Shown here: positions 4,709 to 28,635 of the stretch, one piece after another
How the letters are laid out: each line of letters begins with the position of its first letter
How positions within the stretch are numbered: the stretch's first letter is position 1
NCBI RefSeq assembly: GCF_047663525.1
Contig: NC_092617.1
Span: 5,511,550-5,575,549, forward strand
DNA length: 64,000 nt
Source: Anas platyrhynchos
Lineage: Eukaryota
Direction: 5' to 3'
Notes under the pieces: model-generated
What the model was told of the DNA's origin: nothing
What the model saw: the letters and a program-made list of their open reading frames with translations, nothing else
The model's database searches: none
Made by a program: the position numbers and the translations under genes

Positions 4709-5223
4709 TTATATGGCCAGGAACATCTCGACGGGGCAGTGGTCGCTCCCCATCACCTTATTGCGGATCTTACTATCGCACAGCGCCCCCTCCAGGCGTC
4801 GCGACAGGAGGCAATAATCCAACCTCCACCCCACGTTGCGCCCCCGCGCGCCCCCCAAATAGGTCCAAAAAGTGTAGGCGTGGGGCACGGCCGGGTAAAG
4901 GTGCCGAAAAGTATCCAAAAACCCCAACCCCAAAAGCTCCCCGAAACCTTCCCGTTCCTCGTCGGTGAAGCCGGGCGATTTTCGGTTGGCCCGCGGGTGC
5001 CGCAGGTCGATTTCGGCGTGGGCCACGTTGAGGTCGCCGCAGACGGCCACCGGTTTTCGGGCGTCCAAATTGGCCAAAAAGGAGCGGAAGGCGCGGTCCC
5101 AGCGTTGCCGGTAGGGCAAGCGCACCAAGCCCCGGCCCGAATTGGGGACGTAGGCGGCCACCACGTAGAGGGCCGGGAATTCGGCCGTCACCACCCGGCC
5201 TTCCGAGTCGTGCTCGGGGTCAC
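4709..5223 (-). CDS. APEX1: APEX1 last coding exon: the endonuclease/exonuclease/phosphatase fold from [16 protein letters not shown] through CPVEMFLAI*
   Basis: Minus-strand acceptor cccccag|GT at 5224-5226. Translation ...[53 protein letters not shown]...YTFWTY...[10 protein letters not shown]...[13 protein letters not shown] is collinear with human APEX1 residues ~145-318. The catalytic D210/N212/D283/D308/H309 equivalents are present. TAA at 4709-4711. Confidence 0.88.
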
Positions 5224-6660
5224 CTGGGGGGGAGAGAGTGGGGGGTGGCTACCGGGGGGCGACCGGTGGCTACCAAAGGGTTTGGGGTCAACTGGTAGAA
5301 ACTGGAAGGTTTTGGGGTCAACTGGTGGCTACCAAATGGTTTTGGGGTCAATGGTGGCCATTGGAAAGTCTTGGGGTCAATTGGGCAACCAAGGGTCTAC
5401 TGGTGGCTACCAAAGGGTTTTGGGGTAAATGGTGGCCATTGGAAGGTCTTGGGGTCAATAGTGGTGGTTTGGGGTCTACTGGTGGCTACCAAATGGTTTT
5501 GGGGTCAATGGGGCAACCAAGGGTCTACTGGTGGCCATTGAAGGGTTTTGGGGTCAACTGGTGGCTACCAAATGGTTTTGGGGTCAATAAAGGCTATTGA
5601 AGGGTTTTGGGGTCATCTGAAGGGTTTTGGGGTCAATAAAGGCTATTGAAGGGTTTTGGGGTCAACTGGTGGCCACCAAATGGTTTTAGGGTCAATGGGG
5701 CAACCAGGGGTCTACTGGTGGCTATCAAAGGGTTTTGGGGTCAATGGTGGCCATTGAAGGGTTTTAGGGTCAATGGGGCAACCAGGGCTCTACTGGTGGC
5801 TACCAAAAGTTTTTGGGGTCATCCGAAGGGTTTTAGGGTCAATGGTGGCCATCGAAGGGTTTTGGGGTCAATGGGGCAACCAAGGGTCTACTGGTGGCCA
5901 TTGAAGGGTTTTGGGGTCAACTGGTGGCTACCAAATGGTTTTGGGGTCAATAAAGGCTATTGAAGGGTTTTGGGGTCATCTGAAGGGTTTTGGGGTCAAT
6001 AAAGGCTATTGAAGGGTTTTGGGGTCAACTGGTGGCCACCAAATGGTTTTAGGGTCAATGGGGCAACCAGGGGTCTACTGGTGGCTATCAAAGGGTTTTG
6101 GGGTCAATGGTGGCCATTGAAGGGTTTTAGGGTCAATGGGGCAACCAGGGCTCTACTGGTGGCTACCAAAAGTTTTTGGGGTCATCCGAAGGGTTTTAGG
6201 GTCAATGGTGGCCATCGAAGGGTTTTGGGGTCAACTGGTGGCTACCAAAGGGTTTTGGGGTCAATGGTGGCCATTGAAAGGTTTTGGGGTCAATGGGGCA
6301 ACCAAGGGTCTACTGGTGGCTACCAAAGGGTTTTGGGGTCAATAAAGGCTATTGAAGGGTTTTGGGGTCAATGGGGCAACCAAGGGTCTACTGGTGGCTA
6401 CCAAAGGGTTTGGGGTCAATGGTGGCCATTGAAAGGTTTTGGGGTCAATGGGGCAACCAGGGGTCTACTGGTGGCCATCAAAGGGTTTTGGGGTCATCTG
6501 AAGGGTTTTGGGGTCAATAAAGGCTATTGAAGGGTTTTGGGGTCAACTGGTGGCCACCAAAGGGTTTTGGGGTCAATGGTGGCCATTGAAGGGTTTTGGG
6601 GTCAATGGGGCAACCAGGGCTCTACTGGTGGCCACCAAAGGGTCTTGGGGGCAACTGGTG

Positions 6661-6835
6661 GCCAGGAAGGAGCGGAAGGCGCGGTCCCAGCGTTGCCGGT
6701 AGGGCAAGCGCACCAAGCCCCGGCCCGAATTGGGGACGTAGGCGGCCACCACGTAGAGGGCCGGGAATTCGGCCGTCACCACCCGGCCTTCCGAGTCGTG
6801 CTCGGGGTCACCTGGGGGGGAGAGAGTGGGTGGTG
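6661..6835 (-). pseudogene. Duplicated fragment of the APEX1 last exon (acceptor plus first ~135 nt), copy 1 inside the satellite array
   Basis: Near-identical to 5086-5240, including cacctggggggg (the rc of the acceptor cccccaggtg). The ORF track gives [41 protein letters not shown] and then diverges. Confidence 0.85.
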
Positions 6836-7464
6836 GCTAGTGGGGGGCGACCGGTGGCTACCAAAAGGTTTGGGGTCAATTGGTAGCAACTGGAAGGTTT
6901 TAGGGTCTACTGGTGGCTACCAAATGGTTTTGGGGTCAATGGTGGCCATTGGAAGGTCTTGGGGTCAATGGGGCAACCAGGGGTCTACTGGTGGCTACCA
7001 AAAGGTTTTGGGGTCAACCGAAGTGTTTTAGGGTCAATGGTGGCCATCGAAGGGTTTTGGGGTCAACTGGTGGCCACCAAATGGTTTTAGGGTCAATGGG
7101 GCAACCAGGGGTCTACTGGTGGCTATCAAAGGGTTTTGGGGTCAATGGTGGCCATTGAAGGGTTTTGGGGTCAATGGGGCAACCAAGAGTCTACTGGTGG
7201 CCATCGAAGGGTTTTGGGGTCAACTGGTGGGTACCAAAGGGTTTTGGGGTCAATAAAGGCTATTGAAGGGTTTTGGGGGCAATGGGGCAACCAAGGGTCT
7301 ACTGGTGGCTACCAAAGGGTTTTGGGGTCATCGGAAGGGTTTTGGGGTCAATAAAGGCTATTGAAGGGTTTTGGGGTCAATGGTGGCCACCAAAGGGTTT
7401 TGGGGTCAATGGGGCAACCAAGGGTCTACTGGTGGCTACCAAAGGGTTCTGGGGGCAACTGGTG

Positions 7465-7625
7465 GCCAGGAAGGAGCGGAAGGCGCGGTCCCAGCGTTGC
7501 CGGTAGGGCAAGCGCACCAAGCCCCGGCCCGAATTGGGGACGTAGGCGGCCACCACGTAGAGGGCCGGGAATTCGGCCGTCACCACCCGGCCTTCCGAGT
7601 CGTGCTCGGGGTCACCTGGGGGGAA
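7465..7625 (-). pseudogene. Duplicated APEX1 last-exon fragment, copy 2
   Basis: Same ~170-bp segment as copy 1, ORF 7377..7586 (-). Confidence 0.85.
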
Positions 7626-8344
7626 AAGGGGTCAGAGGTGGCTACCAGGGGTTGATGGGTGGCTACCAGAGGGTTTGGGGTCAATGGTGGCCATTGAAGG
7701 GTTTTGGGGTCTACTGGTGGCTACCAAAGGGTTTTGGGGTCAATGGTGGCCATTGAAGGGTTTTGGGGTCATCTGAAGGGTTTTGGGGTCAATGGTGGCT
7801 ACCAAAGGGTTTTGGGGTCATCCAAAGCGTTTTGGGGTCAATAAAGGCTATTGAAGGGTTTTGGGATCAATGGGGCAACCAAGGGTCTACTGGTGGCCAC
7901 CAAAGGGTTTTGGGGTCAATGGTGGCCATTGAAGGGTTTTGGGGTCAATAGTGGTGGTTTGGGGTCTACTGGTGGCTACCAAATAGTTTCGGGGTCAATG
8001 GGGCAACCAAGGGTCTACTGGTGGCCATCGAAGGGTTTTGGGGTCAACTGGTGGCTACCAAAGGGTTTTGGGGTCAATGGTGGTGGTTTGGGGTCAATAA
8101 AGGCTATTGAAGGGTTTTGGGGTCAATGGTGGCTACCAAAGGGTTTTGGGGTCAATGGGGCAACCAAGAGTCTACTGGTGGCTACCAAAGGGTTTTGGGG
8201 TCAATGGTAGCCATCGAAGGGTTTTGGGGTCAACTGGTGGCTACCAAAGTGTTTTGGGGTCAATGGTGGCCATTGAAGGGTTTTGGGGTCAATGGGGCAA
8301 CCAGGGGTCTACTGGTGGCCACCAAAGGGTTCTGGGGGCAACTG

Positions 8345-8515
8345 GTGGCCAGGAAGGAGCGGAAGGCGCGGTCCCAGCGTTGCCGGTAGGGCAAGCGCAC
8401 CAAGCCCCGGCCCGAATTGGGGACGTAGGCGGCCACCACGTAGAGGGCCGGGAATTCGGCCGTCACCACCCGGCCTTCCGAGTCGTGCTCGGGGTCACCT
8501 GGGGGGGAGAGTGGG
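8345..8515 (-). pseudogene. Duplicated APEX1 last-exon fragment, copy 3
   Basis: Same ~170-bp segment as copy 1, ORF 8260..8469 (-). Confidence 0.85.
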
Positions 8516-9959
8516 GGTGGCTACTAGGGGGCGACCGGTGGCTACCAAAAGGTTTGGGGTCAATTGGTAGCAACTGGAAGGTTTTAGGGTCTACTGGTGG
8601 CTACCAAATGGTTTTGGGGTCAATGGTGGCCATTGGAAGGTCTTGGGGTCAATGGGGCAACCAAGAGTCTACTGGTGGCTACCAAAAGGTTTTGGGGTCA
8701 ACCGAAGGGTTTTAGGGTCAATGGTGGCCATTGAAGGGTTTTGGGGTCAACTGGTGGCTACCAAAGGGTTTTGGGGTCAATGGTGGTGGTTTGGGGTCAA
8801 TAAAGGCTATTGAAGGGTTTTGGGGTCAATGGTGGCTACCAAATAGTTTCGGGGTCATTGGGGCAACCAAGGGTCTACTGGTGGCTACCAAAGGGTTTTG
8901 GGGTCAATGGTGGCCATTGAAGGGTTTTGGGGTCAATAGTGGTGGTTTGGGGTCTACTGGTGGCTACCAAATAGTTTCGGGGTCAATGGGGCAACCAAGG
9001 GTCTACTGGTGGCTACCAAAGGGTTTTGGGGTCAATGGTGGCTACCAAATGGTTTTGGGGTCATCTGAAGGGTTTTGGGGTCAATAAAGGCTATTGAAGG
9101 GTTTTGGGGTCAATGGTGGCCACCAAAGAGTTTTGGGGTCAATGGGGCAACCAAGGGTCTACTGGTGGCCATTGAAGGGTTTTGGGGTCAAGTGGTGGCT
9201 ACCAAAGGGTTTTGGGGTCAATGGTGGTGGTTTGGGGTCAATAAAGGCTATTGAAGGGTTTTGGGGTCAATGGGGCAACCAGGGATCTAATGGTGGCTAC
9301 CAAAGGGTTTTGGGGTCATCGGAAGGGTTTTGGGGTCAATGGTGGCCATTGAAGGGTTTTGGGGTCAACTGGTGGCCACCAAAGGGTTTTGGGGTCAATG
9401 GGGCAACCAAGGGTCTACTGGTGGCTACCAAAGGGTTTTGGGGTCAAGGGTGGCTACCAAATGGTTTTGGGGTCATCGGAAGGGTTTTGGGGTCAATGGT
9501 GGCAATTGAAGGGTTTTGAGGTCTACTGGTGGCTACCAAAGGGTTTTGGGGTCATCGGAAGGGTTTTGGGGTCAATGGTGGCAATTGAAGGGTTTTGAGG
9601 TCTACTGGTGGCTACCAAATGGTTTTGGGGTCATCGGAAGGGTTTTGGGGTCAATGGTGGCAATTGAAGGGTTTTGAGGTCTACTGGTGGCTACCAAAGG
9701 GTTTTGGGGTCAATAAAGGCTATTGAAGGGTTTTGGAGTCAATGGGGCAACCAAGAGTCTACTGGTGGCTACCAAAGGGTTTTGGGGTCAATTGGTGGCT
9801 ACCAAAGGGTTTTGGGGTCAATAAAGGCTATTGAAGGGTTTTGGGGGCAATGGGGCAACCAGGGGTCTACTGGTGGCTACCAAAGGGTTTTGGGGTCATC
9901 CGAAGGGTTTTGGGGTCAATGATGGTAGTTTGGGGTCAACAGGTGGCCACTGAAGGGTT

Positions 9960-12244: not shown

Positions 12245-12420
12245 TCCCACATCCAACACTTCCGGGGCCTCCTCCTGCACCCACTGGCCCCAAAAACGCC
12301 CGAAATTAACCCAAAATGGTCCGGGGGGGGAACCCGGAAAAAGACGGATAGAGGTTGTCCAGAAACAATCCCAAAAATCGCCCCAAAATGTCCCAAATCC
12401 TAGAAATGGCCCAAATCCTA
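12245..12420 (-). pseudogene. Duplicated APEX1 middle-exon 5' edge (acceptor, ~31 nt of exon WVQEEAPDV, ~150 nt of upstream intron), copy 1 of 6
   Basis: cccacatccaacacttccggggcctcctcctgcacccactggccccaaaaacgcccgaa matches the original at 11430-11500. Minus ORFs end …WVQEEAPEVLDVGFGGDL. Confidence 0.8.
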
Positions 12421-12954
12421 TAAATATCCCAAATCCTATAAAAATCCCAAATCCCATAAATATCCCAAATCCTATAAATACCCCAAAATCCCATAAATAA
12501 ACCCCAAAACCCCCGAAATCCCCGAAATCCCGCAAATCCCATAAATTCCAACCCCATAAATCCCCCAAAACCCTAAAAATCCCCCCCAAATCCCATAAAT
12601 CCCCCAAAATCCCATAAATTCCAATCCCATAAACCCCCCAAAACCCCATAAATAAACCCCAAATCCCCCCAAAACCCAGAAATCCCCCAAATCCCATAAA
12701 TTCCAATCCCATAAATCCCCCAAAACCCTATAAATCCCCCCCAAATCCCATAAATCCCCCAAAATCCCATAAATAAACCCCAAATCCCATAAATCGCCCC
12801 AAATCCCATAAATTGCCCCAAATCCCCCAAATTCCAATCCCATAAATCCCCCAAAAAAACATAAATAAACCCCAAATCCCCCCAAAACCCATAAATCACC
12901 CCAAATCCCCAAAATCCCAATCCCATAAATCCCCCAAAACCCTATAAATCCCCC

Positions 12955-13140
12955 CCAAATCCCACATCCAGCACGTCCGGGGCCTCCTCCTGCACCCACT
13001 GGCCCCAAAAACGCCCGAATTTAACCCAAAATGGTCGGGGGGGAACACCCGGAAAAAGACGGATAGAGGTTGTCCAGAAACAATCCCAAAAATTGCCCCG
13101 AAATGTCCCAAATCCTAGAAATAACCCAAATCCTATAAAA
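12955..13140 (-). pseudogene. Duplicated APEX1 middle-exon 5' edge, copy 2
   Basis: ORF 12942..13190 (-) ends [18 protein letters not shown]. Confidence 0.8.
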
Positions 13141-13624
13141 ACCCTAAATCCTATAAATATCCCAAATCCCATAAATACCTCAAATCCCATAAATACCCTA
13201 AAACCTCATAAATACCCCAAAATCCCATAAAGAAACCCCAAACCCCCCCAATTTCCCCAAATCCCAGAAATCCCGCAAATCCCATAAATTCCAATCCCAT
13301 AAATCCCCCAAAACCCTAAAAATCCCCCCCAAATCCCATAAATCCCCCCAAATCCCATAAATTGCCCCAAATCCCCCAAATTCCAATCCCATAAATCCCC
13401 CAAAACCCTAAAAATCCCCCCCAATTTCCCCAAATCCTATAAATCACCCCAAATCCCATAAATCGCCCCAAATCCCATAAATTGCCCCAAATCCCATAAA
13501 TTCCAATCCCATAAATCCCCAAAAACCCCCTAAATAAACCCCAAATCCCCCCAAAACCCATAAATCGCCCCAAATCCCATAAATCCCAATCCCATAAATT
13601 CCCCAAAACCCTATAAATCCCCCC

Positions 13625-13800
13625 CAAATCCCACATCCAGCACGTCCGGGGCCTCCTCCTGCACCCACTGGCCCCAAAAACGCCCGAATTTAACCCAAAA
13701 TGGTCAGGGGGGAACACCCGGAAAAAGACGGACAGAGGTTGTCCAGAAACAATCCCAAAAATTGCCCCAAAATGTCCCAAATCCTAGAAATAACCCAAAT
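13625..13800 (-). pseudogene. Duplicated APEX1 middle-exon 5' edge, copy 3
   Basis: Sequence cacgtccggggcctcctcctgcacccactggcc at ~13640. Confidence 0.75.
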
Positions 13801-14139
13801 CCTATAAAAACCCCAAAACCCTATAAATCCCCCAAATCCCATAAATAAACCCCAAATACCCCCAAATCCCATAAATCGCCCCAAATCCCCCAAATTCCAA
13901 TCCCATAAACCCCCCAAAACCCTAAAAATCCCCCCAAATCCCATAAATACCCCAAAATCCTATAAATCACCCCCAAATCCCATAAATTCCCCCAAATCCC
14001 CCAAATTCCAATCCCATAAATCCCCCAAAAAAACATAAATAAACCCCAAATCCCCCCAAAACCCATAAATCACCCCAAATCCCCAAAATCCCAATCCCAT
14101 AAACCCCCCAAAACCCTACAAATCCCCCCCAAATCCCAC

Positions 14140-14300
14140 ATCCAGCACGTCCGGGGCCTCCTCCTGCACCCACTGGCCCCAAAAACGCCCGAAATTAACC
14201 CAAAATGGTCGGGGGGGAACACCCGGAAAAAGACGGATAGAGGTTGTCCAGAAACAATCCCAAAAATTGCCCCAAAATGTCCCAAATCCTAGAAATAACC
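14140..14300 (-). pseudogene. Duplicated APEX1 middle-exon 5' edge, copy 4
   Basis: ORF 14116..14583 (-) ends [18 protein letters not shown]. Confidence 0.8.
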
Positions 14301-14754
14301 CAAATCCTATAAAAACCCCAAATCCTATAAATATCCCAAATCCCATAAATACCCCAAAATCCCATAAATAAACCCCAAATCCCATAAGTTGCCCCAAATC
14401 CCATAAATTCCAACCCCATAAACCCCCCAAAACCCTATAAATAACCCCCAATTTCCCCAAATCCCATAAATTGCCCCAAATCCCCCAAATTCCAATCCCA
14501 TAAATCCCCCAAAACCCTAAAAATCCCCCCCAATTCCCCCAAATCCCATAAATCACCCCAAATCCCATAAATTCCAATCCCATAAATCCCCCAAAACCCT
14601 AAAAATCCCCCCAAATCCCATAAATCGCCCCAAATCCCATAAATTGCCCCAAATCCCCCAAATTCCAATCCCATAAATCCCCCAAAACCCTAAAAATCCC
14701 CCCCAATTTCCCCAAATCCCATAAACCCCCCCAAACCCTATAAATCCCCCCCAA

Positions 14755-14930
14755 ATCCCACATCCAGCACGTCCGGGGCCTCCTCCTGCACCCACTGGCC
14801 CCAAAAACGCCCGAAATTAACCCAAAATGGTCCGGGGGGAACACCCGGAAAAAGACGGATAGAGGTTGTCCAGAAACAATCCCAAAAATTGCCCCGAAAT
14901 GTCCCAAATCCTAGAAATGGCCCAAATCCT
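14755..14930 (-). pseudogene. Duplicated APEX1 middle-exon 5' edge, copy 5
   Basis: ORF 14738..15517 (-) ends [18 protein letters not shown]. Confidence 0.8.
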
Positions 14931-15469
14931 ATAAAAACCCTAAATCCCATAAATGTCCCAAATCCCATAAATACCCCAAAATCACATAAATACCCCAAAA
15001 TCCCATAAATAAACCCCAAATCCCCCCAAATCCCATAAATCCCAGAAATTCCAATCCCATAAATCCCCCAAAACCCTATAAATCCCCCACAAATCCCATA
15101 AATACCCCAAAATCCCATAAATAAACCCCAAATCCCATAAATCACCCCAAATCCCATAAATCGCCCCAAATCCCCCAAATTCCAATCCCATAAATCCCCA
15201 AAAACCCCATAAATAAACCCCAAATCCCATAAATCCCATAAATCGCCCCAAATCCCATAAATTCCAATCCCATAAATCCCCAAAAACCCTAAAAATCCCC
15301 CCCAATTTCCCCAAATCCCATAAATCACCCCAAATCCACCCCAAAATCCCATAAATAAACCCCAAATCCCATAAATAAACCCCAATTCCCCCAAATCCCA
15401 TAAATCGCCCCAAATCCCCCAAATTCCAATCCCATAAACCCCCCAAAACCCTATAAATCCCCCCCAAAT

Positions 15470-15650
15470 CCCACATCCAGCACGTCCGGGGCCTCCTCCT
15501 GCACCCACTGGCCCCAAAAACGCCCGAATTTAACCCAAAATGGTCGGGGGGGAACACCCGGAAAAAGACGGATAGAGGTTGTCCAGAAACAATCCCAAAA
15601 ATTGCCCCGAAATGTCCCAAATCCTAGAAATGGCCCAAATCCTATAAAAA
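15470..15650 (-). pseudogene. Duplicated APEX1 middle-exon 5' edge, copy 6
   Basis: ORF 15451..15942 (-) ends [18 protein letters not shown]. Confidence 0.8.
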
Positions 15651-17463: not shown

Positions 17464-17610
17464 CTGCAGCCCCCCCTTTTTGATCCAGGCCCGCAGCCCC
17501 CCCACGTTCCAGGACGCCAGGCGCAGCGACGCCGCCGCCCCCCCCGGGGACAGCGCCCGCACGGGGGGGTCCTCGTAGGGACACGGCGACGGGGGGCGCT
17601 TCGGGGGCAC
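17464..17610 (-). CDS. APEX1: APEX1 first coding exon ([M/V][48 protein letters not shown])
   Basis: Donor CAG|GTAGGT at minus 17464/17463. Aligns to human MPKRGKK…[41 protein letters not shown]. The codon at the conserved Met position is GTG (plus 17608-17610), preceded by tatcccccc-AG, so the 5' boundary and the start codon are unresolved. Confidence 0.7.
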
Positions 17611-18830
17611 TGGGGGGATACTGGGAGTTACTGGGAGGCACTGGGAGGGGACTGGGAGGGGACTGGGATAAACTGGGAGGGGGTTTGGGGAGATTTGGGG
17701 GGGATTTGGGGGATTTTAGGGGGATTTTAGGGGGGATTTAGGGGATTTTGGGGGGTTTTAGGGGACTGGGATGTACTGGGAGGGAACTGGGAGATACTGG
17801 GAGGGGACTGGGAGGGGACTGGGATAGACTGGGATAAACTGGGAGGGACTGGGAGAGGTTTTGGGGGCGTTTTGGGGGGGATTTGGGGGATTTTGGGGGG
17901 TTTTGGGGCACTGGGATGTACTGGGATATACTGGGAGGGGACTGGGATATACTGGGAGTGAACTGGGAGGCACTGGGATAAACTGGGAGGGGACTGGGGG
18001 GCACTGGGATAAACTGGGAGGGGTTTTGGGGGGGGTTTCAGGGGGTTTTGGGGGGGTTTAGGGGGATTTTAGGGGATTTTGGGGGGTTTTAGGGGACTGG
18101 GATGTACTGGGAGGGGACTGGGAGATACTGGGAGGGGACTGGGGTATACTGGGATATACTGGGAGGGACTGGGAGGGGGTTTGGGGGGCGTTTTGGGGGG
18201 GATTTGGGGGATTTTAGGGGGATTTTAGGGGGTTTTGGGGCACTGGGAGGGGACTGGGAGATACTGGGAGGTGACTGGGATATACTGGGAGGAGACTGGG
18301 GTATACTGGGATATACTGGGAGTGAACTGGGAGGGGACTGGGAGGGACTGGGGGGCACTGGGAGGGACTGGGAGGGGACTGGGAGGCACTGGGAGGGACT
18401 GGGAGGGGACTGGGAGGGGACTGGGAGGCACTGGGAGGGGACTGGGAGGGACTGGGAGGCACTGGGAGGGCACTGGGAGGGCACTGGGAGGGGACTGGGA
18501 GGGACTGGGAGGGGACTGGGAGGCACTGGGAGGGACTGGGAGGGACTGGGAGGGACTGGGAGGGGACTGGGAGGCACTGGGAGGGACTGGGAGGGGACTG
18601 GGAGGGACTGGGAGGGGACTGGGAGGCACTGGGAGGGACTGGGAGGAGACTGGGGGGCACTGGGAGGGGACTGGGAGGCACTGGGAGGGGACTGGGAGGG
18701 ACTGGGAGGCACTGGGAGGGACTGGGAGGCACTGGGAGGGGACTGGGAGGCACTGGGAGGGACTGGGAGGCACTGGGAGGGGACTGGGAGGGGACTGGGA
18801 GGGGACTGGGAGGCACTGGGGGGGGGCAGT
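17611..18830. repeat. Satellite with a ~10-11 bp unit GGGACTGGGAG, same family as 1-460
   Basis: gggactgggagg/gggcactgggagg reiterated about 110 times. Long repeat-translation ORFs on both strands (for example the PSP-rich 207-aa minus ORFs). Confidence 0.9.
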
Positions 18831-18839
18831 GGGAGGAGC

Positions 18840-21180
18840 CCCCTCCCAGTGCCCCGTACTGGTTCCTACTGGTCCCTGCTGGTCCCCACCAGTCCCTACT
18901 GGTTTATACTGGTCTATTTATACTGGTCTATACTGGTTTATACTGGTCTATACTGGTTTATACTGGTCTATACCAGTCCCTACCAGCCCATACTGGTCCC
19001 CACTGGTTCCTGCTGGTTTATACTGGTCTACTTATACTGCTTTACACTGGTCTATACTGGTTTATACTGGTCTGTACTGGCCCATACTGGTCCCTACTGG
19101 TCCCCACCAGTCCCTACTGGTTTATACTGGTCTATTTATACTGGTTTATATTGGTTTATACTGGTATATGCTGGTCTGTACTGGTTTATACAGATCTATA
19201 CTGGCCTGTACTGGACCATACTGGCCCATACTGGTCCATAATGGTCCATACTGGTCTATTTATACTGGTCTATACTGGTCTATACTGGTTTATACTGCTC
19301 TATACTGGTTTATATTGGTCTATACCAGTCCGTACTGGTCCATACTGGTCTCCACTGGTCCCTACTGGTCCATAATGGTCTATTTAAACTGGTTTATACT
19401 GGTCTGTACTGGTTTATACTGGTCTATACCAGCCCGTACCGGCCCATACTGGTCTATACTGGTCCCCCCCACCCCATACTGGTCCCTACTGGTCTATAAT
19501 GGTCTATCCTGGTCTATTTATACTGGCTTATACTGGTTTATACTGGTCCATACCTGCCTGTATCAGTCCCTACTGGTCCCTACTGGTTTATACTGGTCTA
19601 TTTATACTGGGGTATACTGGTTTATACTGGCTTATACTGGTCTAAACTGGTCCATACCGGTCCCTACCGGTCCCCACTGCCCCATACTGGTCCCTACTGG
19701 TCCCTACTGGTCTATTTATACTGGTTTATACTAGTCTATACTGGTTTATACTTGTTCATACTGGTCTATACTGGTTTATAGTGGTCTATACCAGCCTGTA
19801 CCGGTCCCTACTGGTCTATACTGGTCTATTTATACTGGCTTATACTGGTATATACTGGTCTGTACTGGTTTATACTGGCTCGTACTGGCCCGTACTGGTC
19901 CCCACTGGTCTATACTGGTCCCTACTGGTCAATACTGGTCCATTTATACTAGTCTATACTGGTTTATACTGGTCTGTACCGGTTTATAGTGATCTATACT
20001 GGCCCGTACTGGCCCATACTGGTCTATACTGGTCCCCCCTGCCCCATACTGGTCCCTACTGGTCCATTTATACTGGTTTATACTGGTCGATACCGGCCCA
20101 TACTGGTCTATTTATACTGGTTTCTACTGGTCCATACTGCTCTATACTGGTTTATACTGGTCGATACCGGCCCGTACCAGTCCCTACTGGTCCATAATGG
20201 TCCATACTGGTCTACTTATACTGGTCTATACTGGTTTATACTGGTTTATACTGTCTTTTACTGCTCTATACTGGTTTATACCGGCCCGTACCGGTCCCTA
20301 CTGGTCCCTACTGGTCTATACTGGTCTACTTATACTGGTTTATACTGGTATATACTAGTCTGTACTGGTTTATACTGGTCTAAACCGGTCCGTACTGGCC
20401 CATACTGGTCCCTACTCATCAATACTGGTTTATATTGGTCTATTTATACTGGTCTATTTATACTGGTTTATACTGGTTTGTACTGGCTTTTAGTGCTCTA
20501 TACTGGTTTATACTGGTTGATACCGGCCCGTACCGGTCCCTACTGGTCCCTACTGTTCCATACTGGTCTACTTATACTGGTTTATACTGGTTTATACTGG
20601 TTTGTACTGGTTTAAAGTGATCTATACTGGCCCGTACTGGTCCATACTGGTTCCTACTGATCCATACTGGTATATACTGGTCTATTTATACTGGTCTATG
20701 CTAGTTTATACTGGTCTATACTGGTCTGTACTGGTTTATACTGGTCTAAACCGGTCTGTACTGGCCCGTACTGGTCCCTACTGGTCCATAGTGGTCCATA
20801 CTGGTCTACTTATACTGGTCTATACTGGTCTATGCTGGTTTATACTGGTCTATACTGGTCTGTACTGGCTTATACTGGTCTAAACCGGTCTGTACTGGCC
20901 CATACTGGTCCCTACTGGTCTACTTATACTGGTTTATACTGGTTTATACTGGTTTATACTGGTCTGTACTGGTTTATACTGGTCTAAACCGGTCTGTACT
21001 GGCCCATACTGGTCCCTACTGATCCATACTGGTCTATAATGGTCTATTCATACTGGTTTATACTGGTCTATACTGGTTTATACTGGTCTATACTGGTTTA
21101 TACTGGTTATACCGGCCCATACCGGTCCCTCCCGCTCCCCCCCGCCCCACACCGGCCCATACTGGTTTATACTGGTTTAT
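18840..21180. repeat. Satellite with a 10-bp unit TACTGGTCTA / TACTGGTTTA, ~2.3 kb
   Basis: Direct reiteration. Shares the ACTGG core with the flanking GGGACTGGGAG satellite. Occasional ~9-bp variants (tatttatactgg). Confidence 0.9.
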
Positions 21181-21575
21181 ACTGGTCCATACTGGTCGCA
21201 CTCACCCTCCTTGTCCCCGCCGTTCTCCTTCCGGGCTCGCTTGGGCATGGCTCCTCGTGGCCCCGCCCCCTGCGCGCCCCGCAGCCAATCAGCGCCCGCC
21301 GCGGGGAGCCCGGAGCCAATCAGCGCCCGCCGCGGGCCGGGCCCGGAGCCAATCAGCGGCGGCCGCGCGCGGGGGGCCCGGAGCGTGGCGCGCGGCGGCG
21401 GCGGCCGGAAGCGGAAGCGAGCGAGGGCCGGAAGCGGAAGCGCCTCAAACCGGAAGGGGAGGAGCTTCGAACCCGGAAGCGGAAGCGGAGAAGCTCCGGA
21501 GGCGGCGGAGGAGGCGGCGGAGCGGCGCGGGAGGCGGCGGTGACGTCAGAAGTGACGTCAGAAGTGACGTCAGCG
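21180..21575. promoter_or_regulatory. Bidirectional CpG-island promoter for OSGEP (+) and APEX1 (-): GC box, three NF-Y CCAAT boxes, ETS (CCGGAAGC) repeats, three tandem CRE (TGACGTCA) sites next to the OSGEP ATG, and a minus-strand splice donor
   Basis: ccccgccccc at 21261. gcagccaatcagcg at 21285, 21316 and 21349. ccggaagcggaagcg repeated at 21405-21490. tgacgtca at 21541, 21553 and 21565. Minus-strand AGG|GTGAGT donor (plus ctcaccct, 21201-21208) facing APEX1. Confidence 0.7.
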
Positions 21576-21690
21576 ATGCCGACGGTGCTGGGGCTGGAGG
21601 GCTCGGCCAACAAGGTGGGGGCGGGGCTGGTGCGCGACGGCCGCGTCCTCAGCAACCGCCGCGCCACCTACGTCACGCCCCCCGGGCACG
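21576..21690 (+). CDS. OSGEP: OSGEP (Kae1/TsaD family, KEOPS t6A tRNA threonylcarbamoyladenosine transferase) exon 1
   Basis: ATG at 21576. [38 protein letters not shown](G), versus human [39 protein letters not shown]. Donor G|GTGAGC, phase 1. Confidence 0.92.
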
Positions 21691-21699
21691 GTGAGCGGA

Positions 21700-22745
21700 A
21701 GTGACGTCACTCGGAACGCCCCCCGTGACGTCACTTCCCCCCCCCCGGTCCCCTCCGTGTGACGTCATTGCTTCAGATCCCCCCCTATAGGCCCGTTAGG
21801 CCTCGCCCCGGTGACGTCACGGACACTTCCTGTGACGTCACGGGGGCCGTGACCCCGCCCCCGTGACCTCTGACCCCGCCCCGTGACCTTTGACCCCTCC
21901 CTGTGACCTTTGACCCCCCCCATCCTGACCCCTGACCCCCTGGGACCCGTCACCCCCCTGTGGCCGATGCCCCCCCCTTGTGACCCCTCCCCCGTGACCT
22001 TTGACCCCAAGTGACCCCGGTGACCCCTGCCCGTGACCTTTGACCCCGCGGTGACCCCTGACCCCCTCCCCATGACCTTTGACCCCCCCATGACCCCCAA
22101 CCCCCCATGACCCACGTGACCAATTCCCCCTTGACCCCTGCCCCCCGTGACCCCTGACCCCTTTGTGACCCCGCCCCCGTGACCTTTGACCCCACCGTGA
22201 CCCCAACCGTGACCCCTGACCCCCCAGTGACCCCTCCCCATGACCTTTGACCCCCCCATGACCCCTAACCCCCCCGTGACCCACGTGACCAATTCCCCCT
22301 TGACCCCTTTCCCCCGTGACCCCTGACCCCTCTGTGACCCCACCCCATGACCTTTGACCCCACCGTGACCCTGAGGGTGACCTTTGACCCCTGGGTGACC
22401 CCTTACCGTGACCTTTGACCCCCCCATGACCCCTAACGCCCCTATGACCCACGTGACCAATTCCCCCCTTGACCCCTGCCCCCCGTGACCCCTGACCCCT
22501 TGTGACCCCACCCCGTGACCTTTGACCCCGCCGTGACCCTGACCGTGACCTTTGACCCCTGGGTGACCTTTGACCCCCCTCCCCATGACCTTTGACCCCC
22601 CCATGCCCCCTAACCCCCCTGTGACCCAATACCCACTTGACCCCTGCCCCCGTGACCCCTGACCCCTCTGTGACCCCACCCCGTGACCTTTGACCCCGCC
22701 GTGACCCTGAGGGTGACCTTTGACCCCTGGGTGACCTTTGACCCC
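21700..22745. repeat. OSGEP intron 1: five CRE sites in the first 150 bp, then a ~13-15 bp C-rich minisatellite (GTGACCCCTGACCCC / GTGACCTTTGACCCC)
   Basis: tgacgtca at about 21703, 21727, 21762, 21814 and 21833. More than 15 copies of TGACCTTTGACCC (the rc GGGTCAAAGGTCA is a perfect DR1 half-site pair). Confidence 0.85.
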
Positions 22746-26724: not shown

Positions 26725-28635
26725 CCAAAGACCCCAAAAGGGCCCAAAAAACCCCAAAATGTCCCCAAAAGCCCCCAAATGTCCCCAAAATCCCCGAAAG
26801 GACCCAAAAGACCCCAAAAGGGCTTAAACGTCCCTAAAAGGGTCGTGATGTCATCAAGAGCCCAAAGTCTCCAAGAGGAACCCAACGACCCCAAAATGTC
26901 CTCAAAGACCCCAAAGACCCGAAAATGTCCCCAAAGACCCCAAAAGATCCCAAAAGACCCCAAAATGTCCCAAAAATCTCCCAAATGTCCCCAAAATCCC
27001 CGAAAGGACCTAAATGTCCCTAAAAGGGTCGTGATGTCATCAAGAGCCCGTTGTCCCCAAAAGGAACCCAATGACCCCAAAAGATCCCAAAAGACCCCAA
27101 AATGTCCCAAAAATCCCCAAAATGTCCCAATAATCCCCCAAATGTCCCCAAATTCCCCAAAAGGACCTAAATGTCCCTAAAAGGGTCGTGACGTCATCAA
27201 GACCCCAAAGTCCCCAAGAGGAACCCAACGACCCCAAAATGTCCCCAAAGACCCCAAAAGGACCCCAAAGACCCCAAAAGGGCCCAAAAGACCCCAAAAT
27301 GTCCCCAAAATCCCCAAAAGGACCCAAAAGACCCCAAAAGGACTTAAATGGCCCTAAAAGGGTTGTGACGTCATCAAGACCCCAAAGTCTCCAAGAGGAA
27401 CCCAACGACCCCAAAATGTCCTCAAAGACCCCAAAAGGACCCCAAAGACCCCAAAAGGGCCCAAAAGACCCCAAAATGTCCCCAAAATCCCCAAAAGGAC
27501 CCAAAAGACCCCAAAAGGGCTTAAACGTCCCTAAAAGGGTTGTGACGTCATCAAGAGCCCAAAGTCTCCAAGAGGAACCCAACGACCCCAAAATGTCCTC
27601 AAAGACCCCAAAATGTCCCCAAAGACCCCAAAAAGTCCCAAAAGACCCCAAAATGTCCCCAACCCCCCCCCAATGTCCCCAAAAGGACCTAAATGTCCCT
27701 AAAAGGGTCGTGATGTCATCAAGACCCCAGAGTCCCCAAGAAGAACCCAATGACCCCAAGAGGAACCCAAAGACCCCAAAAGATCCCAAAAGACCCCAAA
27801 ATGTCCCAAAACTCCCCCAAATGTCCCCAAAAGCCCCCAAATGTCCCCAAAATCCCCAAAAGGACCTAAGTGTCCCTAAAAGGGTCGTGACGTCATCAAG
27901 AGCCTAAAGTCCCCAAGAGGAACTCAATGACCCCAAGAGGAACCCAAAGACCCCAAAAACTCCCAAAAGACCCCAAAATGTCCCCAAAGACCCCAAAAGG
28001 GCCCAAAAGACCCCAAAATGTCCCCAAAATCCCCGAAAGGACCCAAAAGACCCCAAAAGGACTTAAACGTCCCTAAAAGGGTTGTGACGTCATCAAGACC
28101 CCAAAGTCTCCAAGAGGAACCCAACGACCCCAAAAGGTCCCCAAAGACCCCAAAAGTCCCGAAAGACCCCAAAATGTCCCAAAAATCCCCAAAATGTCCC
28201 AAAACTCCCCCAAATGTCCCAAAAATCCCCAAAAGGACCGAAGTGTCCCTAAAAGGGTCGTGATGTCATCAAGACCCAAAGTCCCCAAGAGGAATTCAAC
28301 GACCCCAAGAGAACCCTGAAGACCCCAAAAGATCCCAAAAGACCCCAAAATGTCCCAAAAATCCCCAAAATGTCCCAATAATCCCCCAAATGTCCCCAAA
28401 GTCCCCAAAAGGACCGAAATGTCCCTAAAAGGGTTGTGACGTCATCAAGAGCCCAAAGTCCCTAAGAGGAACCCAACGACCCCAAAAGGTCCCCAAAGAC
28501 CCCAAAAGACCCCAAAGACCCCAAAAAGTCCCCAAAGACCCCAAAATGTCCCCAAAAATCCCCCAAATGTCCCCAAAATCCCCAAAAGGACCTAAGTGTC
28601 CCTAAAAGGGTCATGACGTCATCAAGTCCCCTCCC
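26725..28635. repeat. OSGEP intron 6: ~175-180 bp tandem repeat, ~11 copies, each with a GTCGTGACGTCATCAAGA (CRE-like) core
   Basis: Units start near 26840, 27030, 27185, 27365, 27545, 27710, 27885, 28080, 28260, 28440 and 28610. K/P-rich repeat-translation ORFs of the [14 protein letters not shown] type on both strands. Confidence 0.9.

Follow-up and report, generated by a model that had tools for sequence, protein, structure and literature searches.

Where does APEX1 begin in the mallard, and how is the promoter built that it shares with its neighbour OSGEP? In the 64,000-nucleotide window of Anas platyrhynchos DNA analysed here (contig NC_092617.1; all positions are those of the window), APEX1 on the minus strand and OSGEP on the plus strand diverge across a CpG island at 21200-21900 (G+C 0.70-0.77), which is flanked by long tandem arrays. 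Both genes were located by tblastn with human APEX1 and OSGEP sequences, which served as probes only. Between the island and the next APEX1 exon lies a 3.6-kb block of repeats, and the original prediction took this block for satellite DNA that had pushed the APEX1 coding exons away from a conserved bidirectional promoter. We arrive at another gene model. With good confidence, we identify the region as the mallard ortholog of a TATA-less, bidirectional CpG-island promoter that OSGEP and APEX1 share in vertebrates. The island exon is coding in this model, and local repeat formation, or stuttering, has enlarged intron 1 of APEX1 and multiplied the promoter's binding sites.

Four APEX1 exons (21248-21206, 17609-17464, 11465-11273 and 5223-4709, minus strand) join in frame into a protein of 298 amino acids, which matches the NCBI entry 'DNA repair nuclease/redox regulator APEX1 [Anas platyrhynchos]' (P0001, located on a 6.3-Mb record) at 100% identity and 100% coverage. 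OSGEP is modelled as 11 exons on the plus strand (21576-21690 to 33211-33250) with an intact frame of 335 amino acids. The protein shares 84-86% identity with the OSGEP annotations of other birds and matches a duck-like complementary DNA (cDNA) at 100%. Its first coding exon (21576-21690, plus strand) holds 38 residues, ends in phase 1 and is followed by a GTGAGC donor from 21691. The two start codons, APEX1 at 21248 (minus strand) and OSGEP at 21576 (plus strand), are separated by a spacer of 327 bp, and the OSGEP cDNA has its 5' end 240 bp away from the APEX1 start codon. This places the locus among divergent promoters, whose genes lie on opposite strands and have their 5' ends within 1 kb of each other. 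The same arrangement is found at all the loci with which we compared the duck, namely those of little owl, emu, band-tailed pigeon, great cormorant, rock ptarmigan, flatback turtle and one bat. The duck is represented in this comparison by the window alone, and the non-avian loci are those of the turtle and the bat.

The reading frame of APEX1 opens inside the island. On the minus strand, an ATG at 21248-21246 begins an exon of 43 nt (21206-21248) with 14 codons (MPKR...) and the first base of a Val codon, leaving the following intron in phase 1. The exon ends in GAGG and is followed by the 5' splice site GTGAGT at 21200-21205 (minus strand 21209-21200 reads GAGG/GTGAGT, with the donor GT at 21205-21204). 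When this donor at 21205 is spliced over the repeat block to the 17610/17609 acceptor, the APEX1 coding sequence stays in frame. Coding exon 2 (17464-17609, minus strand, ...GGLQ), delimited by tblastn and the spliced model, has no Met codon, and the first internal Met of the protein is close to its C-terminus; a protein start at 17610 is therefore impossible. MPKR is the APEX1 N-terminus in every vertebrate homolog inspected, and the MPKR exon is kept beside OSGEP in seven amniotes. Since the island exon carries an ATG and the conserved MPKR, and exon 2 carries no Met, the island exon 21248-21206 is the start-codon exon of APEX1; there is no other usable start codon.

The original prediction was right about the AGG/GTGAGT donor on the minus strand of the island and about its use: the model that removes 17610-21205 and links this donor to exon 2 of APEX1 gives exactly the NCBI protein. 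It erred in the nature of the exon, which it held to be a non-coding exon 1, with the first coding exon at 17610 displaced 3.6 kb by the satellite. In favour of that version, donor and splice across the block are real, and human APEX1 has a separate non-coding exon 1. Against it stand the ATG and 14 codons of the island exon, the lack of Met in exon 2, the NCBI duck protein, which equals the model starting at 21248, and the orthology of the intron, which is no insertion; the first coding exon is only 327 bp from the OSGEP ATG and has not been displaced at all. We consider this version very improbable. Even less credit can be given to a start of APEX1 transcription in the repeat block just upstream of 17610, with the island exon lying outside the gene. 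We found no support for it, though the array does hold many splice-site-like, G+C-rich units; such a transcript would have no in-frame start codon, the MPKR exon stands beside OSGEP in the seven amniotes, and the annotation is the spliced model.

Could a further non-coding exon precede the coding one? An acceptor just before the APEX1 ATG would permit it, but the upstream sequence GGCTGCGGGGCGCGCAG contains no acceptor-like pyrimidine tract, and we rejected an extra exon spliced at this place. In the duck the ATG exon appears to be the first exon, unlike in human APEX1. Two Logan APEX1 cDNAs of other species (P0011 and P0024) have N-termini other than MPKR and were judged uninformative on the 5' end.

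If the block is not an insertion, what is it? Its limits are the splice sites of a single intron. APEX1 intron 1 (17610-21205, minus strand) measures 3596 bp, 97% of which is tandem repeat according to Tandem Repeats Finder (TRF), and its acceptor CCCCCCAG ends at 17610. It is made up of two 10-mer arrays of 1-2.3 kb. The 5' array (18857-21197, minus strand; TRF) consists of roughly 215-225 copies of GACCAGTATR (TACTGGTCYA on the plus strand), and the 3' array (17762-18824, minus strand; TRF) of about 100 copies of CCCTCCCAGT. The latter unit resembles the genuine junction of acceptor and exon 2, CCCCCCAG followed by TGCCC. When exon 2 with 60 nt of its intron flank was used as a blastn probe against the 3' array, the alignments extended 20-50 nt beyond the acceptor into the exon.

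The same intron is present in the other amniotes. A phase-1 intron follows the first 14-22 APEX1 codons (exon 1 of 43-67 nt) in five birds (duck, pigeon, cormorant, owl and emu), the turtle and the bat; in the ptarmigan, where exon 2 lies outside the fetched DNA, its position was deduced from the annotated protein. Its length is 207 bp in the bat, 271 in the pigeon, 281 in the turtle, 751 in the cormorant, 1324 in the owl, 1452 in the emu and 3596 in the duck, and exceeds 8 kb in the ptarmigan. Tandem repeats cover 82-98% of it in the five birds (95-98% in emu, owl and cormorant), while the turtle intron, judged by eye, is unique and non-repetitive. The 10-mer family CCCTCCCAGT / CCCAGTGCCC is common to intron 1 of duck, owl, emu and cormorant, and GACCAGTATA stands at its 5' end both in the emu (13 copies) and in the duck (about 215). 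The satellite insertion of the original prediction resolves into an orthologous phase-1 intron that has expanded and whose 10-mer family recurs in emu, owl and cormorant. What fills the 3.6 kb is an ordinary intron 1 enlarged by local repeat stuttering.

Such stuttering is not confined to intron 1. The remaining introns of APEX1 and OSGEP are also covered by repeats (TRF), each with its own units, so that the introns consist mostly of imperfect local tandem repeats. Partial exon copies occur in the introns adjacent to APEX1 exons 3 and 4, on their upstream side. The exon-3 acceptor with the first 30 nt of its exon recurs in six partial copies at 12254-15555 (minus strand, 92-97% identity), and the exon-4 acceptor with the first 153 nt in three at 6659-8555 (minus strand, 93-97% identity); each of these copies includes a plausible 3' splice site. 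'Sequence stuttering' of introns and exons has been described for genes on chicken dot chromosomes (PMC12954441, Genome Biol Evol 2026), and the duck locus shares its hallmarks: introns made almost wholly of imperfect local repeats, one unit per intron, and partial exon copies within introns. It differs from that account in that the units of duck intron 1 are common from emu to duck.

Some further properties of these arrays deserve mention. On the minus strand, the 5' half of intron 1 holds 135 GTATR motifs, which look like 5' splice sites, and the 3' half 76 YYYYCAG motifs, which look like 3' splice sites. The genuine acceptor is the last unit of its array, with a branch-like TAAC 20-23 nt upstream. 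We considered whether the arrays might act as reiterated decoy splice sites and set the idea aside, as a local origin from the flanks of the splice sites explains them equally well. The YACTGG(G/T) 10-mer family is not limited to intron 1: a second array at 135-1946 (ATACTGGGATGTACTGGGAGG...) lies downstream of APEX1. Finally, in an older duck APEX1 entry (P0010, UniRef, Anas platyrhynchos platyrhynchos) an N-terminus derived from intronic repeat (MGFMGFGVYLWDF...) replaces exons 1-2, an example of how intronic repeats corrupt automated gene models.

How, then, is the 327-bp spacer organized? It has 78% G+C and a CpG observed/expected ratio of 1.16, contains no TATAAA, and a scan for ATG and CAT found no ATG on either of its strands; start sites inside the spacer would accordingly be free of upstream open reading frames (ORFs). 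Going from APEX1 to OSGEP, one meets a single Sp-type GC box, then three CCAAT boxes, then four ETS sites and finally three cyclic AMP response elements (CREs). The GC box CCCCGCCCCC (21261-21270; GGGGGCGGGG on the APEX1 strand) lies 13-22 bp upstream of the APEX1 ATG. The three CCAAT boxes, AGCCAATCAG at 21283-21292, 21314-21323 and 21347-21356, belong to a 31-bp unit repeated 3.3 times (21278-21384, plus strand; TRF). They are 31 and 33 bp apart, all on the OSGEP-sense strand, and are the only copies of AGCCAATCAG in the window, against an expectation of 0.06; none of 100 shuffles reached three. A 23-bp unit repeated 3.7 times (21405-21487, plus strand; TRF) carries four CCGGAAG motifs (21405, 21428, 21450 and 21473) and seven CGGAAG cores, with CCGGAAGCGGAAG at 21405, 21428 and 21473 (expected 0.00) and its variant CCGGAAGGGG at 21450. 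Lastly, the perfect 12-bp unit GTGACGTCAGAA, repeated 2.8 times in transcribed DNA (21540-21573, plus strand), places CRE palindromes TGACGTCA at 21541, 21553 and 21565, which together span -35 to -4 of the OSGEP ATG at 21576.

The site inventory of the original prediction is thus borne out: the three evenly spaced NF-Y boxes at 21283, 21314 and 21347 far exceed the shuffled expectation, and the ETS/GABP-type repeats, the GC box and the CRE triplet at -35 to -4 are where it had put them. The evenness of the spacing arises because the motifs sit in local tandem duplications, with units of 31, 23 and 12 bp (TRF). The AGCCAATCAG boxes have NF-Y-type flanks and lie at least 19 bp apart, as expected of NF-Y multi-CCAAT modules. 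A special role for the distance of 31-33 bp was entertained and not retained: it fits three turns of the helix, but it is also the length of the repeat unit, and it is not a preferred distance between double NF-Y sites in human data.

The CRE palindrome recurs elsewhere in the window, with 21 copies of TGACGTCA against 0.12 expected; its sites include 3649 as well as those at 21541-21840. Five of the palindromes follow the promoter triplet at the start of OSGEP intron 1 (21702-21840, plus strand). Seven lie in an OSGEP intron repeat at 27189-28621, spaced about 177 bp or multiples of it. Three, 11 bp apart, stand at 33168-33197, just before the last OSGEP exon, and two at 36678-36697 in the first coding exon of a TEP1-like gene.

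On the OSGEP side, the start of transcription can be bounded by RNA. The OSGEP search returned a Logan contig (L007; P0121, run SRR31060321, 2251 bp), a spliced cDNA 97-100% identical to the window, which confirms all ten modelled OSGEP introns exactly and is colinear with the genome to a 5' end at 21488. The minimum OSGEP 5' untranslated region (UTR) therefore extends over 88 nt (21488-21575, plus strand), and since the cDNA covers them, both the GGAGGCGGCGGA repeat (21497-21540) and the three CREs are transcribed and lie in this 5'UTR. OSGEP transcription begins no further downstream than 21488, where the ETS array has its 3' edge. In TATA-less promoters, ETS/GABP sites are usually placed next to start sites.

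The contig and the window differ inside the 12-bp GGAGGCGGCGGA repeat, which hints at polymorphism. The disagreement also bears on whether repeat lengths and copy numbers at this locus might be artefacts of assembly, given that G+C-rich microchromosome regions are difficult to sequence (PMC12954441). This we regard as improbable: six bird assemblies, made independently, show the same architecture, both the CRE triplet and OSGEP exon 1 are borne out by the cDNA, and the coding sequences are intact.

Further downstream, the contig leaves OSGEP at a GT donor within its last coding exon (GAG/GTGACG, about 33233), is spliced to a canonical acceptor at 36586 and then takes in 11 exons of a downstream TEP1-like gene with a TROVE domain, up to 57696 (plus strand). 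This exit replaces the OSGEP C-terminus VTWRD by GLLGAAPPPPG. The contig is either a conjoined OSGEP-TEP1 transcript or an assembly chimera. The stretch 33300-64000 consists almost entirely of tandem arrays, with long spurious ORFs on both strands (for instance one of 793 amino acids, 'MGSIGS...'). The ORF listing over 33-64 kb gave only repeat-derived pseudo-ORFs; mechanical lists of this kind have no value in such DNA, and the downstream gene was recognised through the RNA contig instead.

Is the promoter conserved, as the original prediction asserted? In part. The order APEX1 ATG - GC boxes - CCAAT array - ETS - CRE (TGACGYC) - OSGEP ATG is common to duck, pigeon, cormorant, owl and emu, and so are the kinds of sites. 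In each of the four birds other than the duck, a pair of TGACGYC elements stands directly against the OSGEP ATG, and GC-rich repeats CCACGCCCCC, in three to five copies, occupy the GC-box position in owl and emu. The CCAATs of the five birds are nearly all OSGEP-sense, the exception being one ATTGG in the owl. A 19-nt core, GCAGCCAATCAGCGCCCGCCG, forming one 'anchor' unit of the CCAAT array, recurs in each of them. Just inside OSGEP intron 1, 121-136 nt after the ATG, the GTGACGTCAC palindrome is present in the five birds and absent from turtle and bat.

What has not been preserved is the number of copies and, in the ptarmigan, their orientation. The ATG-to-ATG spacer measures 327 bp in the duck, 472 in the pigeon, 962 in the turtle, 968 in the bat, 969 in the cormorant, 1077 in the emu, 1104 in the owl and 1916 in the ptarmigan. 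CCAAT copies rise from 3 in the duck through 4 in the pigeon, 7 in the emu and 18 in the cormorant to 23 in the owl, the last two arrays holding a period of 31-32 bp. The emu has an ETS array of a 23-bp unit repeated 10.7 times (about 11 copies), and the ptarmigan has 26 CCGGAAG motifs (38 CGGAAG cores) in a 103-bp repeat, together with six CCAATs in inverted orientation. In birds, then, the kinds of sites are stable, while copy number and sometimes orientation turn over quickly. In the 968-bp spacer of the bat we found neither CCAAT nor CCGGAAG in exact form, nor a full CRE or a hexamer of the GC box; it has three CACGTG E-boxes instead.

Two of these loci call for separate remarks. At the ptarmigan locus (Lagopus muta, L008; 8084-10000 and 10001-43291), OSGEP spans 33 kb and APEX1 intron 1 more than 8 kb. 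In an NCBI APEX1 isoform of this species the open frame extends through the ETS array, 363 nt further upstream than MPKR, a hint that the APEX1 leader is long here. In the turtle (Natator depressus, L005; spacer 4765-5726), where the NCBI APEX1 model (P0057) has a wrong N-terminus and the true MPKR exon at 5727 was found by hand, the spacer holds ten same-strand CCAATs with a period of about 43 bp and six GTCACGTG E-boxes. Because the turtle has this array despite its unique intron 1, tandem CCAATs at the promoter may predate stuttering of the bird type.

Are the repeated sites more than passengers? It is possible, if somewhat unlikely in our estimate, that the promoter is real and that the extra sites and their even spacing are neutral by-products of stuttering, a single CCAAT, an ETS site or two and possibly one CRE being sufficient. 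Every class of motif does lie in a tandem repeat, and arrays of a similar kind fill the intergenic DNA and the introns around. Counts among birds run from 3 to 23 for CCAAT and from 1 to 26 for CCGGAAG, the ptarmigan CCAATs are flipped, and the anchor core persists in each of the five birds, in contrast to the other units, which diverge. Nor is 31-33 bp a preferred distance between double NF-Y sites in human (PMC4889920). Against neutrality, the CCAAT core with its NF-Y-type flanks (RRCCAATCAG) is retained in 43 of the 55 bird units, though arrays elsewhere decay fast; the sites of an array all lie on one strand; the boxes are farther apart than the minimum of 19 bp at which two NF-Y complexes can bind together; and the turtle, with a non-repetitive intron 1, also has an array of ten CCAAT boxes.

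Much of this architecture has precedents. The human and mouse OSGEP/APEX bidirectional promoter goes back to Seki et al. 2002 Gene 285:101 and Ikeda et al. 2002 BBRC 296:785, as cited in PMC2094082 and PMC3121118; Table 3 of the latter, citing both, lists a CCAAT box and SP1 as experimentally validated for OSGEP/APEX and mOsgep/mApex. Under oxidative stress, c-Jun/ATF-2 bound to a CREB site activate the human APE1 promoter, in which Sp1 also takes part (PMC3794595). As far as these citations describe it, the mammalian promoter resembles that of the duck: an orthologous pair head-to-head, a CpG-island spacer with CCAAT and Sp1 elements, and a CRE on the human APE1 side. The duck spacer differs in that its sites lie in tandem units and that its ETS and CRE arrays are prominent.

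Among bidirectional promoters at large, GABPA, NF-Y and SP1 are the most enriched motifs (PMC3121118). The duck spacer, CpG-rich and TATA-less, with ATGs less than 1 kb apart and GABP/ETS, NF-Y and Sp1 motifs together, is a typical member of this class, and only the tandem reiteration of its sites sets it apart. Human NF-Y chromatin immunoprecipitation sequencing gives preferred double-CCAAT distances of 24-27, 36 and 43 bp and a co-occupancy minimum of 19 bp (PMC4889920). The bird modules resemble those described there in their same-strand CCAATs, NF-Y-type flanks, nearby Sp GC sites and spacing above 19 bp. They depart from them in distance, which is 31-32 bp in duck, owl and cormorant and about 43 bp in the turtle, and in size, arrays of 18-23 CCAATs far exceeding double or triple modules.

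The stuttering literature, in turn, stops short of promoters: PMC12954441 treats chicken introns and exons, with intergenic repeats in passing, and never uses the word 'promoter', whereas here the pattern covers a bidirectional promoter and multiplies its predicted transcription factor sites. Tandem CCAAT arrays at bidirectional promoters were also looked for in the literature, with no relevant hit. What is already known is the shared OSGEP/APEX1 promoter with its CCAAT, Sp1 and CRE elements, since 2002, and repeat-filled dot-chromosome introns, since 2026. For promoter binding sites multiplied by stuttering, with large differences between species, we found no earlier description.

We propose the following scheme for the locus. 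By analogy with human and mouse, NF-Y bound to the CCAAT boxes would drive transcription in both directions together with Sp factors at the GC box, ETS/GABP factors would position the OSGEP start site, and CREB/ATF/Jun factors may modulate the output. The CCAAT spacing of 31-33 bp, being above the 19-bp minimum, would be compatible with simultaneous NF-Y binding. APEX1 exon 1 would then be spliced through the 3.6-kb intron 1, the same phase-1 intron as in all the amniotes examined. In birds this intron would have been filled with locally generated 10-bp tandem arrays by dot-chromosome stuttering, and the same process would have acted on the promoter, leaving each class of site within its own repeat of 31, 23 or 12 bp. 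Copy number turns over fast among bird lineages, while the kinds of sites, and except in the ptarmigan their order and orientation, persist.

Several points weigh against this reading. Function of the CCAAT and Sp1 motifs present in the duck spacer is known from human and mouse, and what we say of factors acting at the duck sites is drawn from work in those species. The absence of exact motifs from the bat limits motif conservation to sauropsids in this comparison. The CCAAT spacing falls outside the preferred human double-CCAAT distances and may be nothing but the unit length. The 21205-to-17610 junction is based on annotation, reading frame and conservation, and the 5' end of the OSGEP contig is the end of an assembly, not a mapped cap site. 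Finally, the APEX1 ATG is only 13 bp away from the GC box and 37 bp from the proximal CCAAT box; sites so near imply that the APEX1 leader is very short, or that its transcription starts inside or beyond the CCAAT/ETS arrays, possibly overlapping the 5' end of OSGEP.

On balance we keep to an orthologous bidirectional promoter with a coding island exon. Overall this is an ordinary case, with a modestly interesting twist in its tandem-arrayed sites. The chief value of the analysis is the corrected gene model: a start-codon exon in the island, an expanded orthologous intron, and CREs in the OSGEP 5'UTR.

The twist leads to a broader and more tentative idea, which we put forward at rather less than even confidence: that stuttering on bird dot chromosomes also acts on core promoters, and that here single NF-Y, ETS and CRE sites have become homotypic arrays (3-23 CCAATs on one strand in a 31-32 bp register, equal to three helical turns, and from 1 to 26-38 ETS sites) with both genes left intact. 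It would extend stuttering from introns to regulatory DNA and, if true, would be a previously undescribed mode of promoter evolution, in which an essential housekeeping promoter tolerates or exploits such differences in site number across birds. If array copy number tunes or buffers the two genes, the birds would offer a natural dosage series for the function of homotypic sites, in which the influence of the number of identical sites and of their phasing on transcription in both directions could be studied.

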